Below, piece after piece: positions 3,083 through 6,730 of a stretch of 8,537 nt of DNA. The stretch lies in IMG/VR virus record IMGVR_UViG_2681813314_000007; one strand, written 5' to 3'. The notes under the pieces were generated by a model, which had not been told where the DNA came from, searched no databases, and saw only the letters and a program-made list of their open reading frames with translations. This DNA comes from a virus (lineage: Duplodnaviria; Heunggongvirae; Uroviricota; Caudoviricetes). Numbering within the stretch: the first letter of the stretch is position 1; each line of letters begins with the position of its first letter. The translations under genes were made by a program, and so were the position numbers.

Positions 3083-3605
3083 ACGAACCCCTGGCAGACA
3101 TTTGTTTATCTGCAAAGTAATATTGGTATTGCTGACGATACGCGTGCTTGAAAGCAATAGCTTTTTCTATAAGCTCGTCAGTCTCACGTTCCACAACAAC
3201 TGGATCCGCAAAAAGCAGCCCGGACTCCACCACATCGCCATATTCTTTGTTTAACCCGGCGATCATGTACGTAATGCTTTTTCCGTCAGTAATTTCACAA
3301 TACAATCTGAAATCGCTGATCCGGATAGCCTCCATAATTGCCGGAATCAGCGCCGTGAATTTGTCACGCTTATCTCTGGTGTCGATAGCTTTCCAGCGTT
3401 CGAATATCTTCACCCGGTTAACGCCCAGCGCCCGTTGATCAACCTCGCCATCATTAAACGTGACGCGTTGAACATCGATGTTCGGGCGTTCTTTCAGAGC
3501 CCAGAATGCTTCCGTGATTAATATCGTCGCCTGCTCCTGTGTCATTCCTGGTCGGCATACCCAGGTATCCAGAGCCTCACAAACCTGTTCAGTGGTGATT
3601 TTCAT
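3054..3605 (-). CDS. YdaT-family protein (occupies the cII position between the Cro-like and O-like genes)
   Basis: 183-aa ORF. Its start overlaps the dicC-like stop by 17 nt, suggesting translational coupling. An internal motif (DKFTALIPAIMEAIR) resembles YdaT-family proteins of Rac-type prophages. Family assignment is from memory. Confidence 0.7.
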   Translation of the reverse strand: MKITTEQVCEALDTWVCRPGMTQEQATILITEAFWALKERPNIDVQRVTFNDGEVDQRALGVNRVKIFERWKAIDTRDKRDKFTALIPAIMEAIRISDFRLYCEITDGKSITYMIAGLNKEYGDVVESGLLFADPVVVERETDELIEKAIAFKHAYRQQYQYYFADKQMSARGSYEYRCTTMG

Positions 3606-3816
3606 TGTTCAACCGCCCCGCCCGCTTTGCCTTACGATATTCGTCATAAACTTTGGGGTCGTACTGAAGTTCCCCGCCGGATGCCTCTTGCAGGCGCATC
3701 GCGCGACCTTCAGGAACCAGTTCCCCCCATGCAGCAACGCTTGCCAGCCTAACTCCTGCGACATTGGCAAGCTTTGTTTTGCTGCCAAAAAACGCTATAG
3801 CATCAATTTTCAACAT
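3589..3816 (-). CDS. dicC: DicC-like Cro-type regulator
   Basis: 75 aa, divergent from the dicA-like gene. SD AAGGGG 6 nt upstream of the ATG. Sequence (MLKIDAIAFFGSKTKLA...GRLNNENHH) matches my recollection of DicC. Confidence 0.8.
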   Translation of the reverse strand: MLKIDAIAFFGSKTKLANVAGVRLASVAAWGELVPEGRAMRLQEASGGELQYDPKVYDEYRKAKRAGRLNNENHH

Positions 3817-3892: not shown

Positions 3893-4300
3893 ATGAAAAA
3901 CGAAACCTTCGGTGCTCGCCTCTTATACAGGCGAAAAAAATTAAAACTGTCTCAGGCCGCATTAGGTAAGCTGGTCAAAGTGGCTCACGTAACAATTTCT
4001 CAATGGGAAAGAGATGAAACACAGCCAGCGGGGAAGAGATTATTCGCACTGAGCCAGGCGCTTCAGTGCTCGCCGACTTGGCTTCTTTTTGGAGATGAAG
4101 ATAAGCAACCAGGCGAACCGATCCCAGATAATCAGCCAGTCAATCTGACAGAAGATCAAAAAGAGTTGCTTCAACTGTTCGACGCACTGCCTGAGTCAGA
4201 GCAAAAGGCTCTGTTGTCAGAGATGCGTGCTCGAGTTGAGAATTTCAACAAACTTTTTGAAGAACTACTCAAAGCTCGCAAAAGAAGCGCAAATAAATAA
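3893..4300 (+). CDS. dicA: DicA-like repressor (Xre-family HTH; CI analogue of Qin-type prophages)
   Basis: 135 aa. N-terminal HTH (LSQAALGKLVKVAHVTISQWERDE). Strong resemblance to E. coli DicA, including the ...FALS.ALQCSPTWLLFGDEDKQP... and ...MRARV.NFNKLFEELLKAR... segments. Confidence 0.9.
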   Translation: MKNETFGARLLYRRKKLKLSQAALGKLVKVAHVTISQWERDETQPAGKRLFALSQALQCSPTWLLFGDEDKQPGEPIPDNQPVNLTEDQKELLQLFDALPESEQKALLSEMRARVENFNKLFEELLKARKRSANK

Positions 4301-4429: not shown

Positions 4430-4507
4430 TACTCATCAAGACACCGCACGGTGTTCTCAGCAAACAGTTCCGCTACCCGGCGTTAAGGGGAAGCAGAGGA
4501 TTTCTCA

Positions 4508-4864
4508 GTGGGCGAAGTCAAACATCAGAATGGAAGGCGTCCAGGGATCAGCAAAGAAACAGCGATGGCGCTTTATATTGATATCAGCGCCATTGCCGGA
4601 CAGGTAAGAGTTATCAGAGCGGTAACTAAGCGGTATGCGCCTTTACTTCAGAAAGTCTCTGGTGAGTGCACCGAAGATATTGTCAACGATTTCGTCATCG
4701 AACTGCGAGGACTCATCTTCAGTTACAAGGTGACCACAATTTTTGCAGATGGCTCCCGCGAAACTGTCAGAGCCCTGCGGCTTAAAGGATGTGTCAAAGA
4801 CTTAGCCACCACATTCTGGGCAAGAAAACTTGATTGTATTCATAACCAATTTCCTCTCGAGTAA
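4508..4864 (+). CDS. Hypothetical early-operon protein (GTG start; alternative ATG at 4565)
   Basis: 118-codon ORF. SD-like AGAGGA 7 nt upstream of GTG 4508. First ORF downstream of the putative promoter. No family recognised. Confidence 0.5.
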   Translation: MGEVKHQNGRRPGISKETAMALYIDISAIAGQVRVIRAVTKRYAPLLQKVSGECTEDIVNDFVIELRGLIFSYKVTTIFADGSRETVRALRLKGCVKDLATTFWARKLDCIHNQFPLE

Positions 4865-4936: not shown

Positions 4937-5155
4937 ATGCAGAAACGAGACCCCGTCATCATCGCGCCAGACTATACCGATGATGAACTTTATGAGTGGA
5001 TGCACCAGAAAATTAAGGCGGTGCAGGACCTGAAATGGGCCAATGAAGCCAGGGCTAAGCAGGCTGAAAATCTGTCCGCTCTGGAGCAGGATATCACCAA
5101 TCTGGAAAAAGCAGCGGCATTAAGCATTGCCAGAATGATTACATACCCACGTTAA
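4937..5155 (+). CDS. ydfC: YdfC-like small prophage protein
   Basis: 72 aa. Strong SD AAGGAG 6 nt upstream of the ATG. Length and position (between the dicA-like gene and dicF) match ydfC of the Qin dicB operon. The name is assigned by synteny and memory, not by a search. Confidence 0.7.
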   Translation: MQKRDPVIIAPDYTDDELYEWMHQKIKAVQDLKWANEARAKQAENLSALEQDITNLEKAAALSIARMITYPR

Positions 5156-5177: not shown

Positions 5178-5585
5178 ATGGAATTTAAAGATTTACCAAC
5201 GCCATTACAGGAAATGGCATCGAATATAGTTCGTTCACAACTGGCTACTCTTGACCTTAGTACCGCAGAAAAAGAAACCATCGATAATATGGTTCGTAAT
5301 GTGCGCAATGCTTTTTCTGGGCTATATGGTTCTGATAATCAAAAGCAGGAAAGCGATGTTAATAAACGGGTAATTTCTGTTTGCGTGAATGGCCATGTTC
5401 TTTCATCAATCAAAACAGAAACGGCGACAGTCTTCGATTGCCTTTGCATTGTACAGAGCCTTGTTGATGCCCTGTTTCGTTCAGTGAATTTAGAAAATGA
5501 TGCAAATCTGCGAGGGCGCATAATAGCACATCCATATGCACATACTTTAGGCTCTGTGGATATCAAAGATCCCACAAATCTTTAA
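5178..5585 (+). CDS. Hypothetical protein, AT-rich accessory (moron-like) gene
   Basis: 135 aa. SD GAGG 6 nt upstream of the ATG. Markedly more AT-rich than flanking prophage genes. No recognisable domain and no predicted TM segment. Confidence 0.65.
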   Translation: MEFKDLPTPLQEMASNIVRSQLATLDLSTAEKETIDNMVRNVRNAFSGLYGSDNQKQESDVNKRVISVCVNGHVLSSIKTETATVFDCLCIVQSLVDALFRSVNLENDANLRGRIIAHPYAHTLGSVDIKDPTNL

Positions 5586-5796
5586 TGAAATAGTTAACGC
5601 GAATTGTACTTGCTCTTTCGGTTGCTTTCAGAATACGCGTTGAAACTGCTGGCGGTAATTTGGTATTCCATTTATTAAAATCATGCCCGGGAAAGTACTC
5701 TTCGAAAATACTTTTAACTGCAGACTCGCCTATTGAAATGCTGCTTACCATGCGATTTTGATAAAGGCATTTAGCAATAAGAGTTGATTTTAACAT
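5563..5796 (-). CDS. Hypothetical small protein, convergent with and overlapping the 3' end of the 135-aa gene
   Basis: 77 aa. Strong SD AGGAGG 4 nt upstream of the ATG (5794-5796). It is the only long open frame across an AT-rich stretch where stops should be frequent by chance. Overlaps the 135-aa gene by 23 nt. Confidence 0.5.
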   Translation of the reverse strand: MLKSTLIAKCLYQNRMVSSISIGESAVKSIFEEYFPGHDFNKWNTKLPPAVSTRILKATERASTIRVNYFIKDLWDL

Positions 5797-6129
5797 TCAC
5801 CCTCCTGAGGGTTGGTAATTAAGGAGTTCTCCACGGGTGAAGTGGAGTGCGTGCGCCGGACACGGGTGAACATCCGGCACTGACAGTTTACTGAAAGGAT
5901 ATTTCTCTGAAAAGTCAGACCATAACGCGAAAGCGCACGGCGAGGTAGCTGGTTCATAGATAGCCTGTCGTTAAATTTTCGTCGACCGTGCGCTTCCGGT
6001 TGTGGCAATCCGCGAAATGGCGCGGCGGTAAGTATGGAGGGGTTATTCCTTCCCCGTTGAGGACACCGGGTTGTCAGGTTGACCATACGCTTAAGTGACA
6101 ACCCCGCTGCAACGCCCTCTGTTATCAAT

Positions 6130-6187
6130 TTTCTGGTGACGTTTGGCGGTATCAGTTTTACTCCGTGACTGCTCTGCCGCCCTTTTT
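6130..6187 (+). ncRNA. dicF: DicF small RNA (53 nt plus terminator U-tract)
   Basis: The sequence TTTCTGGTGACGTTTGGCGGTATCAGTTTTACTCCGTGACTGCTCTGCCGCCC followed by TTTTT matches my recollection of E. coli DicF. GC stem GGCGG (6145-6149) / CCGCC (6177-6181) precedes the T-run. Sits immediately upstream of dicB, as in Qin. Confidence 0.85.
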
Positions 6188-6191
6188 AAAG

Positions 6192-6339
6192 TGAATTTTG
6201 TGATGCGGTGAATGCGGCTGAGCGCACGCGGAACAGTTAAAACCAAAAACAGTGTTATGGGTGGATTCTCTGTATCCGGCGTTAATTGTTAACTGGTAAA
6301 CGTCACCTGGAGGCACCAGGCACCGCATCACAAAATTCA
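6192..6339 (+). repeat. 19-bp perfect inverted repeat enclosing about 110 nt between dicF and dicB (candidate long-range RNA stem / RNase III processing site)
   Basis: TGAATTTTGTGATGCGGTG at 6192-6210 is the exact reverse complement of CACCGCATCACAAAATTCA at 6321-6339. The 3' arm ends 5 nt before the dicB SD (GAGGA, 6345-6349). Confidence 0.6.
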
Positions 6340-6356
6340 TTGTTGAGGACGCGATA

Positions 6357-6545
6357 ATGGAAACGTTATTACCAAACGTTAATACGTCTGAAGGTTGTTT
6401 TGATATTGGTGTTCTGCTCAGTAACCGGGAGTTTACGGAAGATGCCATTAAGATGAGAAAATATGAACCTTATCTTCTCAATGATAATTCCATACTTTCC
6501 AGAATTGCCCTTCTTGAACTTGGTATTATCGGAGAACAGCAGTGA
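6357..6545 (+). CDS. dicB: DicB cell-division inhibitor (MinC-dependent)
   Basis: 62 aa beginning METLLPNVNTSEGCF, matching my recollection of E. coli DicB. SD GAGGA 7 nt upstream. Located directly downstream of dicF. Confidence 0.9.
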   Translation: METLLPNVNTSEGCFDIGVLLSNREFTEDAIKMRKYEPYLLNDNSILSRIALLELGIIGEQQ

Positions 6546-6730
6546 CTTCAGCATTTGCACTGGTGATGACCGTTTTTCTTATAACGGGTGAGCCACAAAA
6601 TGTGATTACCGGAATTTATGACAGTAAGTCATCCTGCATTCAGGTAAGGGACGAACAAAAAATCCCCGGTGAATGCCTCCCGTTAAAAAAAGTATCGCTG
6701 AACCTGAATAACGAAATACCGGCTGGATAA
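6542..6730 (+). CDS. ydfD: YdfD-like small protein with hydrophobic N-terminus (lysis-associated in Qin)
   Basis: 62 aa. GTG start overlaps the dicB stop (aGTGA). N-terminus SAFALVMTVFLITGEP is hydrophobic and resembles YdfD. Position immediately after dicB matches Qin. Confidence 0.75.
   Translation: MTSAFALVMTVFLITGEPQNVITGIYDSKSSCIQVRDEQKIPGECLPLKKVSLNLNNEIPAG

Follow-up and report, generated by a model that had tools for sequence, protein, structure and literature searches.

A conserved, pseudoknotted RNA domain within the untranslated leader of the dicBF operon of lambdoid prophages

Introduction

The DNA directly upstream of the small RNA gene dicF is crowded with hairpins, and the question it raises is whether these belong to a leader from which DicF is cut, to a structured RNA in its own right, or to a spacer in which no structure has been selected. 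We addressed this question in a stretch of 8,537 nucleotides of viral DNA (Caudoviricetes; IMG/VR record IMGVR_UViG_2681813314_000007), called the window below, which contains a lambdoid prophage's immunity and early-left region. The hairpin-rich region studied here lies at 5800-6128 on the plus strand. An original prediction, made from the letters of the sequence alone, had described it as a noncoding block with several perfect stems and a duplicated loop motif, and had offered two readings, namely a processed leader of DicF or an independent structured RNA that controls either a convergent 77-aa gene or the operon.

The processed-leader interpretation is correct and was already known. Positions 5810-6128, which are 319 of the 329 nt of the region, match with ~97% identity the ydfC-dicF spacer of E. 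coli K-12, which is the leader of the dicBF operon, and the processing of this leader by RNase III as well as RNase E has been published. In this lambdoid prophage the region makes up the untranslated leader of the early-left operon dicBF and comprises three layers: a 5′ third (5810-5919), a long stem (5920-6005) and a 3′ core domain (5998-6116). What the DicF papers covered here do not describe is a widely conserved structured domain within the leader, the core, on which we concentrate here.

Results

The core is a covarying domain just upstream of an intrinsic terminator

The core lies on the plus strand just upstream of the intrinsic terminator hairpin of DicF and is built from the following elements.

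5998-6116 (+): core domain with five helices and a pseudoknot; 138.9 bits with covariance model R1, supported by covariation
5999-6006 with 6106-6113 (+): helix P0
6010-6014 with 6021-6025 (+): helix P1
6027-6029 with 6065-6067 (+): helix P4
6039-6042 with 6052-6055 (+): helix P2
6068-6076 with 6096-6104 (+): helix P3
6032-6037 (GUAUGG) with 6083-6088 (CCAUAC, in the P3 loop) (+): pseudoknot

The evidence for this fold is comparative, and rests on core homologues gathered from viral contigs, one-genome-per-species contigs and metagenomes. In a plain MAFFT alignment of 29 sequences (A2), 93.1% of the cells in P0, helix P1, P3 and the pseudoknot are paired and 11 pairs show double changes, a level that 0 of 500 shuffles reached. 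RNAalifold, run on the MAFFT alignment, independently recovered P0, P1, P2 and P3 and proposed P4. When 39 diverse sequences were realigned with R1 (alignment A5), 94.0% of the cells in 36 pairs were paired and 16 pairs carried compensatory double changes (six in P3, four in P0, three in P2, and one each in helix P1, P4 and the pseudoknot). Again 0 of 500 shuffles reached this level, while structures slid by 1-3 columns paired in only 33-53% of the cells. A set of 74 sequences gives the same covariation picture.

The exchanges can be followed from lineage to lineage. P3 reads GGGUUGUCA/UGACAACCC in the window, GGGUAACCA/UGGUUACCC in Izhakiella and GAGCUACCA/UGGUAGCUC in the homologous locus L155, and P2 occurs as CGGGG/CCCCG, CUGGG/CCCAG, CAGGUG/CACCUG or CCCGGG/CCCGGG depending on the lineage. 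The pseudoknot changes from GUAUGG/CCAUAC to GCAUGG/CCAUGC in phage P1; further pseudoknot variants, with A-U or G-C at the covarying position, had no matches in viral contigs. The nucleotides of the junctions (GGCGGYAAGYAUGG, CACCG and CAGGUUGACCAURCGC) are invariant.

Direct reading and a repeat search placed all the stems of the original prediction, as well as its duplicated 10-mer, where it had put them, bar one arm. Two of these stems turn out to be helices of the core. CCGCG/CGCGG (6010-6014 with 6021-6025) is helix P1, and the 9-bp stem formed by GGGTTGTCA (6068-6076) and TGACAACCC is P3, the 3′ arm of which lies at 6096-6104 and not at 6095-6103. The idea of an independent structured RNA is borne out for 5998-6116 by strong covariation and does not extend to 5810-5919, where covariation is lacking. 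The comparison that had been proposed as a check, a covariance-model search combined with comparative alignment, found no Rfam family for the core; compensatory changes are present in the core and the long stem and absent from the upstream hairpins (A-C, below).

The strand of the RNA had originally been argued from GNRA-type loops, said to appear only in the plus-strand reading. This argument is weak, as there is a single true GNRA loop (GAAA, 5929-5932) and it is not kept in other lineages. Better support for the plus sense comes from 148 G.U against 51 A.C cells in paired columns and from the known direction of the operon.

The region had also been said to contain no plausible open reading frame. 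Two frames are open, one of 112 codons on the minus strand (5790-6128), which is open in K-12 as well, and one of 36 codons on the plus strand (5988-6098). The 112-aa product has no Pfam match, however, and the homologues of the core vary in length between 117 and 128 nt, non-multiples of three included, so that no reading frame is preserved. A protein-coding reading of either frame was rejected because the 112-aa product has no Pfam match, the frames are broken and the substitutions are those of compensatory pairing.

Searches against Rfam 15 assigned the core to no known family. Over the whole window, with E values up to 1, only DicF and a sub-threshold STnc100 match were returned, and over 5790-6135, with E values up to 10, there was only a chance match to a small nucleolar RNA (E 6.7) and no riboswitch. 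The DicF model itself (RF00039; gathering threshold 48 bits, 52 positions) has no match within 5790-6135; its match, at 6131-6182, follows directly after the leader. In eight homologous loci, Rfam models for tRNAs, C4, isrK and STnc150 matched elsewhere and nothing matched the core.

Two alternative pairings were seen in passing. In the viral contig L155 (5072-5192) the 5′ strand of helix P1, AUCUGCG, is perfectly complementary to CGCAGAU just after P3, and P0 could there lengthen to ~15 bp at the cost of helix P1; this is a single such case. There are two copies of the heptamer GGCGGUA, one in the core (6024-6030), where it contributes to the 3′ side of helix P1 and to the 5′ side of P4, and one that is the 5′ arm of the DicF terminator (6145-6151); the 3′ arm of the terminator can pair with either copy. 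This arrangement is common to the lambdoid versions and is not found in phage P1.

The core is kept across genera while the small RNA attached to it changes

By BLAST, the last 100-120 nt of the region are conserved far more widely than the rest. Numerous lambdoid phages have the core, and phages P1 and P7 and ~500 P1-like plasmids have it with 76-81% identity; according to the records its hosts belong to seven genera (Escherichia, Shigella, Citrobacter, Trabulsiella, Serratia, here Serratia symbiotica, Erwinia, here Erwinia tracheiphila, and Izhakiella). A scan of metagenomes yielded only six further copies, which are Enterobacterales-like. Copies identical or nearly identical to those of phage P1 or E. 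coli Qin were also seen in contigs assigned to Bacillota, Veillonella parvula and a Collinsella metagenome-assembled genome (L137, L138 and L142); these are probably mis-binned or contaminating Enterobacterales DNA and not a sign of a wider host range.

Of 90 distinct flanks 3′ of the core, 86 have a terminator hairpin followed by a U run within ~35-115 nt, and the remaining four contain long or degenerate hairpins. The base of the terminator stem, GGCGG...CCGCC, is common to all versions but that of phage P1, and the body of the hairpin and its 5′ tail differ between lineages. The core is more conserved than the small RNA attached to it, since the loci tested in other lineages (P1, cdtI, pPE4, Citrobacter, Erwinia, Izhakiella, Serratia and Trabulsiella) all have the core and none is matched by the Rfam DicF model. 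The GenBank record of phage P1 marks a 'dicF-like region'; this label reflects similarity to the 3′ half of the core and not to DicF.

The position of the core relative to promoters is far less regular. In phage P1 it comes just after the C1-controlled P1ban promoter, starting 31 nt after the -10 element, with the terminator following it. In phage Ayreon it lies at 4500-4618, ~290 nt after the annotated pL (4184-4211), and in cdtI, pPE4 and an Izhakiella prophage it is found downstream of the repressor gene. In the window it is more than 1.5 kb from the promoter and directly before the DicF terminator. The core keeps its distance to the terminator and not to the promoter. There is one copy per phage, and no second copy, such as would correspond to a putR site, was found in the complete genome of phage mEp460. 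Neither the annotations nor PHROGs point to an N-like gene in mEp460, Ayreon and the Stx2c phages, in which only families of unknown function were returned.

Several loci carry additional elements beside the core. In Erwinia, Izhakiella, Trabulsiella and Serratia (L145 at ~4670-4740, L146, L143, L134 and L166) the core is followed by a much longer terminator hairpin of ~60 nt that contains AGGAG...AUAAUGUUCUACCG, that is, a box resembling a Shine-Dalgarno sequence and an AUG, which could represent a tiny open reading frame or a different small-RNA body. L006, from phage cdtI, has adjoining Rfam matches to C4 antisense RNA (68.4 bits) and to isrK (60 bits) at 40-228 on the minus strand; the pair overlaps the putative antirepressor gene orf44 at its 3′ end and resembles an immI-type module.

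The long stem upstream of the core is conserved and overlaps its closing helix

Between the 5′ third and the core lies a long stem, and the core is in turn connected to DicF by a short spacer.

5920-6005 (+): long stem D, with arms at 5920-5943 and 5983-6005, ~22 bp, small internal loops and a 39-nt apical part
6114-6130 (+): A/U-rich single-stranded spacer GCCCUCUGUUAUCAA, ending at the DicF 5′ end, which is the published RNase E site
6131-6183 (+): DicF, matched at 6131-6182 by Rfam RF00039 (76.7 bits, E 4.8e-16)

Stem D spans some two helical turns, has a predicted energy of -37.4 kcal/mol and folds far better than shuffled sequences (z -3.65). It contains the 10-bp stem of the original prediction, AAGCGCACGG/CCGTGCGCTT (5931-5940 with 5986-5995), which extends to 13 nt with 92% complementarity. 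The hairpin cgcGAAAgcg, which had been listed as an alternative at 5926-5935, is also present in the sequence; as a conserved element it does not hold up, for it competes with the long stem and reads cacGAAAgcg in other lineages.

Stem D is a conserved feature, since other genera keep an equivalent duplex with quite different sequence. Its homologues were identified by seeking an upstream partner for the 27 nt ending in GUUGUGG, and duplexes of -28 to -37 kcal/mol were found in cdtI-type, Citrobacter, Erwinia, Izhakiella, Trabulsiella and other loci, with CACAACGAUGAGAGCAUU pairing with AGUGCUCUCUUCGUUGUG. The length of the enclosed segment varies. The stem is missing only from loci whose core is near the promoter (phage P1) or whose upstream part is a replacement (pPE4, L066). 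The last 7 nt of stem D, GUUGUGG (5999-6005), are at the same time the 5′ strand of P0, and have alternative partners in CCAUAAC at the base of stem D and in the 3′ strand of P0.

Stem D is a probable substrate of RNase III. The 190-nt form of DicF needs RNase III for its 5′ end and the 53-nt form needs RNase E (Ragunathan et al. 2023, bioRxiv 10.1101/2023.04.14.536235, citing Faubladier 1990). If the 190 nt are measured from the 3′ end of DicF, the RNase III cut falls at ~5994, within the 3′ arm of the 10-bp stem; this is an estimate from length, the published coordinate being '813/814'. Positions 5994-6183 are the published 190-nt species and comprise the core, the 17-nt A/U-rich spacer and DicF, which ends in an intrinsic terminator hairpin, GGCGGUAUCAG...CUGCUCUGCCGCC (-15.1 kcal/mol), followed by a U run. 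The dicBF transcript starts upstream of ydfA, with no internal promoter found; the 190-nt form is stable, accumulates in stationary phase and rises on inactivation of RNase E; and K-12 Northern blots show no transcript longer than ydfABC-dicF (all Ragunathan et al. 2023, bioRxiv 10.1101/2023.04.14.536235). Transcripts of dicBF that read through the terminator do exist, as RNase III also makes a 72-nt DicF from the full-length RNA.

The 3′ arm of the long stem resembles boxA in several lineages, where its sequence is GUGCUCUCUU or AUGCUCUUUC; in the window it reads GUGCGCUUCC. A boxA reading of GUGCUCUCUU was rejected, these bases being one strand of the long duplex. The leader has also been reshaped by deletion. 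In L018 the long stem is lost between CGCGAAA at 5926-5932 and CGCGAAA at 6011-6017, which are short direct repeats, and the deletions in L011 and L018 both end exactly in short direct repeats of the leader. The 17-nt segments 5926-5942 and 6011-6027 are 82% identical.

The hairpins of the 5′ third look ordinary

Upstream of stem D the leader forms three hairpins.

5829-5847 (+): hairpin A, CUCCAC/GUGGAG with the 7-nt loop GGGUGAA (sequence and minimum-energy fold)
5855-5878 (+): hairpin B, GCCGGA/UCCGGC with a 12-nt loop
5880-5918 (+): hairpin C, CUGAC/GUCAG with a large internal loop (minimum-energy fold)

The stem CCAC/GTGG (5831-5834 with 5842-5845) noted originally extends to the 6 bp of hairpin A, CTCCAC/GTGGAG (5829-5834 with 5842-5847), and GCCGGA/TCCGGC (5855-5860 with 5873-5878) is the stem of hairpin B. 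The 10-mer CACGGGTGAA is indeed found twice, at 5832-5841, within hairpin A, and at 5861-5870, in the loop of hairpin B.

Real as it is, the duplicated loop motif is confined, together with hairpins A-C, to the leaders of the Escherichia lineage (Qin-type), and its stems never covary. Among ~100 distinct upstream flanks the hairpin loops vary (for example GGGUGAG, GGGUCAG and CACGGAUAAGAA), and the stems of A-C are either invariant or broken in relatives. The stem of hairpin B is invariant, so that its covariation is untestable, and K-12 has a G.A mismatch at its base. Hairpin A is replaced entirely in L023 and L054, whole-segment replacements are seen in other relatives too, and in L011 exactly the 29 nt between the two copies of CACGGGTGAA are deleted.

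Chance estimates were taken from 500-1000 dinucleotide shuffles of the region. They gave P = 0.008 for a perfect stem of at least 10 bp, P = 0.002 for two perfect stems of at least 9 bp and P = 0.039 for any repeated 10-mer. For the whole region the folding z was -2.4 on the plus strand and -3.35 on the minus strand. Divided by part, z was -3.65 for 5919-6007, -1.49 for 5998-6116 and -1.19 for 5810-5919. The folding of 5919-6007 is thus beyond that of shuffled controls, whereas that of 5810-5919 is not beyond chance, 25 of 200 shuffles folding as well. Hairpins A-C show no sign of selection as structure, and the 5′ third looks ordinary.

Control of the 77-aa gene, one of the roles suggested originally, finds no support. 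K-12 keeps the same leader without the 77-aa and 135-aa genes, and, since the 5′ third is among what it keeps, this third is not a control element of the 77-aa gene.

Other features of the 5′ third were noted. At 5822-5869 (+) a GTG at 5837, lying behind AAGGAG (5822-5827), opens a frame of 10 codons to TGA at 5867-5869, which starts within the first copy of the 10-mer and stops within the second; as a mini-ORF (open reading frame) it was rejected, the same frame running to ~40 codons in K-12, so that its length is not conserved. Many non-Qin leaders (34 of 151 loci, among them L146 at ~2210-2260, L134, L058, L066, L036, L109, L012 and L151 at ~29828-29845) carry the motif CCACC(U/G)(C/A)GCCUGA(C/U)GUGGUUAAAAG(C/A)CAGGCACACAACG upstream of the long stem. 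This motif could fold as an H-type pseudoknot, with CCAC/GUGG and GCCUG/CAGGC, and in some prophages repeated boxes TTGTYGTTGGGGAWAT that look like operators lie upstream of it. The 3′ part of hairpin C, AAAAGUCAGACCAUAAC, resembles the end of the upstream motif of the other lineages, AAAAGCAGGCACACAAC, and the window holds only this 3′-end remnant of the motif (5910-5926).

Genomic setting of the leader

The neighbouring genes of the window are arranged as follows.

3589-3816 (-): Cro/DicC-like gene
3893-4300 (+): DicA-like repressor gene
4508-4864 (+): gene for a 118-aa protein
4937-5155 (+): ydfC
5178-5585 (+): gene for a 135-aa protein
5563-5796 (-): gene for the 77-aa protein, convergent with and overlapping the 135-aa gene
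5800-6128 (+): hairpin-rich region studied here
6357-6545 (+): dicB
6542-6730 (+): DUF1482 (ydfD-like) gene

K-12 and the window share the gene order ydfC, leader, dicF, dicB. The pair of 135-aa and 77-aa genes is an insertion relative to K-12, where the spacer directly follows ydfC. These two genes (5178-5796) converge with a 23-nt overlap and belong to the PHROG families phrog_1363 and phrog_10348, both of unknown function, and neither has a Pfam match. The leader has a match in 4427 of 5426 complete E. coli genomes (~80%), with a median of two copies, and in 3511 genomes the match covers at least 80% of the region. The region has a G+C content of 53.8%, compared with 48.1% in the window as a whole and 38.8% in the two upstream genes.

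A simple scan found no promoter-like site on either strand within 5800-6128, and a promoter for the 77-aa gene or dicF inside the region was rejected accordingly. The copy of the core in phage P1 lies near tRNA genes, which prompted the idea of a tRNA-like element; this too was rejected, ARAGORN finding no tRNA genes in the window or in the P1-like locus. In the gap between DicF and dicB (6180-6389, +) there is the sub-threshold match to Rfam STnc100 mentioned above (36.6 bits, gathering threshold 47, E 3e-5), and similarly weak STnc100 matches lie 3′ of the core in L005 (2766-2950, pPE4) and L004 (2842-2961, phage P1). There may be a second conserved RNA after the DicF terminator.

Discussion

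The core within the known processing of DicF

The closest relative of the RNA studied here is the long DicF of K-12, which comes from the same locus, with 97% identity and the same gene order, and which 5994-6183 corresponds to. The DicF papers covered here treat the upstream 137 nt as untranslated leader or 3′ untranslated region and describe for them no fold, pseudoknot or covariation, nor a core without DicF; Faubladier 1990 and Faubladier & Bouché 1994 are not among these papers, so that an earlier remark on sequence similarity is possible.

In the scheme that we propose, RNase III would cut stem D at ~5994 and so create the 5′ end of the 190-nt long DicF, and RNase E would cut the 17-nt A/U-rich spacer and release the 53-nt DicF. 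Because GUUGUGG pairs either with the base of stem D or with the 3′ strand of P0, cleavage by RNase III may free this heptamer and allow P0 to close.

As for the core itself, it does not appear to serve the base-pairing function of DicF. Different genera and phage P1 retain it, and the small RNA attached to it changes. We lean, on balance, towards an action in cis on the terminator and small-RNA module to which it is attached, because its position is kept relative to the terminator and it survives exchange of the small RNA. Acting in this manner, the core could set the ratio between transcripts that end as the small RNA and those that read through; alternatively, it could control how stable the long form of DicF is and how it matures.

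A number of points weigh against this reading or against the strength of its support. We infer the function of the core from its position only, and a simple protective 5′ structure would not need such conservation, which hints at some other role. The alignments A4 and A5 were fitted to the model structure, so that their counts lean towards that structure; the patterns used for collecting homologues fixed part of the pseudoknot and of the P3 loop, which makes the invariance there partly a matter of construction; and because the sequences are related, the shuffle control overstates significance. As a single sequence the core folds unexceptionally (z -1.49), and in the 190-nt RNA the minimum-energy fold favours another, long-range pairing, between GGCGCGGCGG and the terminator's 3′ arm. 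The 5′ strand of P0 is absent from L018, L066, L136 and pPE4, from which it follows that P0 may be dispensable, and the metagenomic homologue L171 has no obvious terminator nearby.

Could the core act on RNA polymerase?

The main alternative is that the core is an RNA that modifies the polymerase, in the manner of the put sites of phages HK022 and HK639 or of the Bacillus EAR element. The nascent core would bind RNA polymerase and carry it through the small-RNA terminator and later ones, and phages without N would in this way express their early-left genes (dicB/kil, exo, xis and int; in phage P1, tRNAs, the tci genes and ban). The core would be a new class of cis-acting phage RNA, acting on the transcribing polymerase or on the terminator just behind the core, and it would be common to the N-less lambdoid phages of Enterobacterales and the P1-type phage-plasmids, standing beside N/nut and put. 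We regard all of this, from the antiterminator mechanism to the new class, as unlikely, though it deserves to be weighed in full.

It gains from synteny, in that the core in every context (phage P1, Ayreon, cdtI, pPE4 and Izhakiella are examples) follows an early promoter under repressor control, precedes the first intrinsic terminator and lies ahead of the early genes, and from the fact that the functional phages mEp460, Ayreon and Stx2c carry the core and have no N-like gene by annotation or PHROGs. The Ayreon operon holds a further annotated terminator, and the 72-nt DicF implies full-length dicBF transcripts that pass the DicF terminator. K-12 Northern blots, however, show nothing beyond ydfABC-dicF, which means efficient termination under those conditions.

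The put RNAs offer the nearest parallel. They are structured RNAs in the early operon of N-less lambdoid phages, located, like the core, between a repressor-controlled promoter and the first terminators, and they make RNA polymerase resistant to terminators in cis; each is ~70 nt long, with two stem-loops and a triplex (PMC9378689). HK639 further resembles the core-bearing phages in that, by annotation, it has a single put site, in the left operon only, and so provides a precedent. The core, in contrast, has ~115 nt, five helices and a pseudoknot, and it resembles put neither in sequence nor in structure; put sites, moreover, lie near promoters, whereas the core keeps its distance to the terminator. 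A search with R1, filters off, found nothing at HK639 34187-34312, the putL-like RNA, or in the immunity region of HK022 (22000-33000), the best match being at chance level (12.8 bits), and a MAFFT alignment of the core with HK639 putL gave no consistent blocks. Homology with the put RNAs was rejected on the strength of this search and this alignment.

The EAR (eps-associated RNA) of Bacillus, which Irnov and Winkler are said to have described in 2010, is reportedly a processive antiterminator of ~120 nt with a pseudoknot, located inside its operon. It is similar in size to the core, shares the presence of a pseudoknot and may sit far inside an operon, as the core does in the window; it belongs to another phylum, however, with no relation in sequence, and no Rfam family matched the region.

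The leader of the lambda N gene, which opens the early-left operon and has an RNase III-sensitive hairpin after nutL, is a further system to be compared. Its early-left position and its long RNase III hairpin have counterparts in the leaders studied here, as do, in several lineages, the boxA-like bases of the 3′ arm. The core phages, on the other hand, lack an N gene and there is no boxB-type hairpin; the boxA-like bases occur in some lineages only, form one strand of a duplex and have the RNase III cut within or adjoining them. A lambda-type nut site was rejected, given that no N-family gene is found in mEp460, Ayreon and Stx2c and that the boxA-like string lies inside a duplex.

Other explanations

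It is improbable, in our view, that the core is a riboswitch-like or protein-bound sensor whose state decides whether the adjacent terminator forms, switching the operon between small-RNA output and read-through into the genes for division inhibition and recombination. The build is aptamer-like, in that one helix closes a junction of several helices, a pseudoknot is present and the junction nucleotides are invariant, and a transcriptional riboswitch would likewise place a compact, pseudoknotted multi-helix domain directly before a terminator hairpin, as is the case here. GUUGUGG has alternative partners, and GGCGGUA is found in the core as well as in the terminator 5′ arm, a repetition that the 190-nt minimum-energy fold exploits by pairing the core with the terminator 3′ arm. 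By eye, however, we saw no mutually exclusive antiterminator, pairing the 3′ side of the core with the 5′ arm of the terminator, that is conserved across lineages, and the terminator of phage P1 is without the GGCGG/CCGCC base. There is no Rfam riboswitch match, and no gene common to all contexts suggests a ligand.

An equally slim chance attaches to a role in trans, in which the ~137-nt remnant left by the RNase E cut (~5994-6130) would be a stable RNA, for example a decoy for a host protein, and its adjacency to a small RNA would reflect only a shared unit of transcription and termination. The greater conservation of the core relative to the attached small RNA would suit such a role, as would the promoter-to-terminator unit of phage P1, which would be a free-standing RNA of ~170 nt, and the 190-nt species, which builds up in stationary phase and is stable there. 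We found no report that describes a discrete species of ~137 nt, though the published probes target DicF and would miss one, and no shared neighbouring gene suggests a partner.

Lastly, that the hairpins are incidental to a GC-rich spacer, to duplication remnants or to a decayed gene, with no selected structure, is plausible for 5810-5919, given its z of -1.19, stems that are invariant or broken in relatives, deletions between short direct repeats (L011, L018), segment replacements (L023, L054 and others) and a 112-codon minus-strand frame that is open even in K-12, but for the region as a whole it is very improbable, being excluded for 5920-6116 by compensatory changes in all six core pairings and the long stem, by conservation across seven genera and into phage P1, and by a length variation of 117-128 nt that breaks every frame, the 112-aa product having no Pfam match.

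What the core means for DicF and for early-left operons

DicF was among the first bacterial small RNAs to be described and is still actively studied for its roles in cell division, metabolism and the virulence of enterohaemorrhagic E. coli. For 35 years its 190-nt long form has been observed and the extra 137 nt have been left without an explanation. Most of these 137 nt are a conserved, covarying, pseudoknotted domain, which is a candidate for a new Rfam family and which, since the terminator small RNAs joined to it differ, has its own function. If the core were indeed a new class of RNA acting on the polymerase or the terminator, which we have called unlikely, it would decide between stopping at a DicF-type terminator and reading through into genes for division inhibition, recombination and replication, and would then represent a third, unrelated solution alongside N/nut and put.

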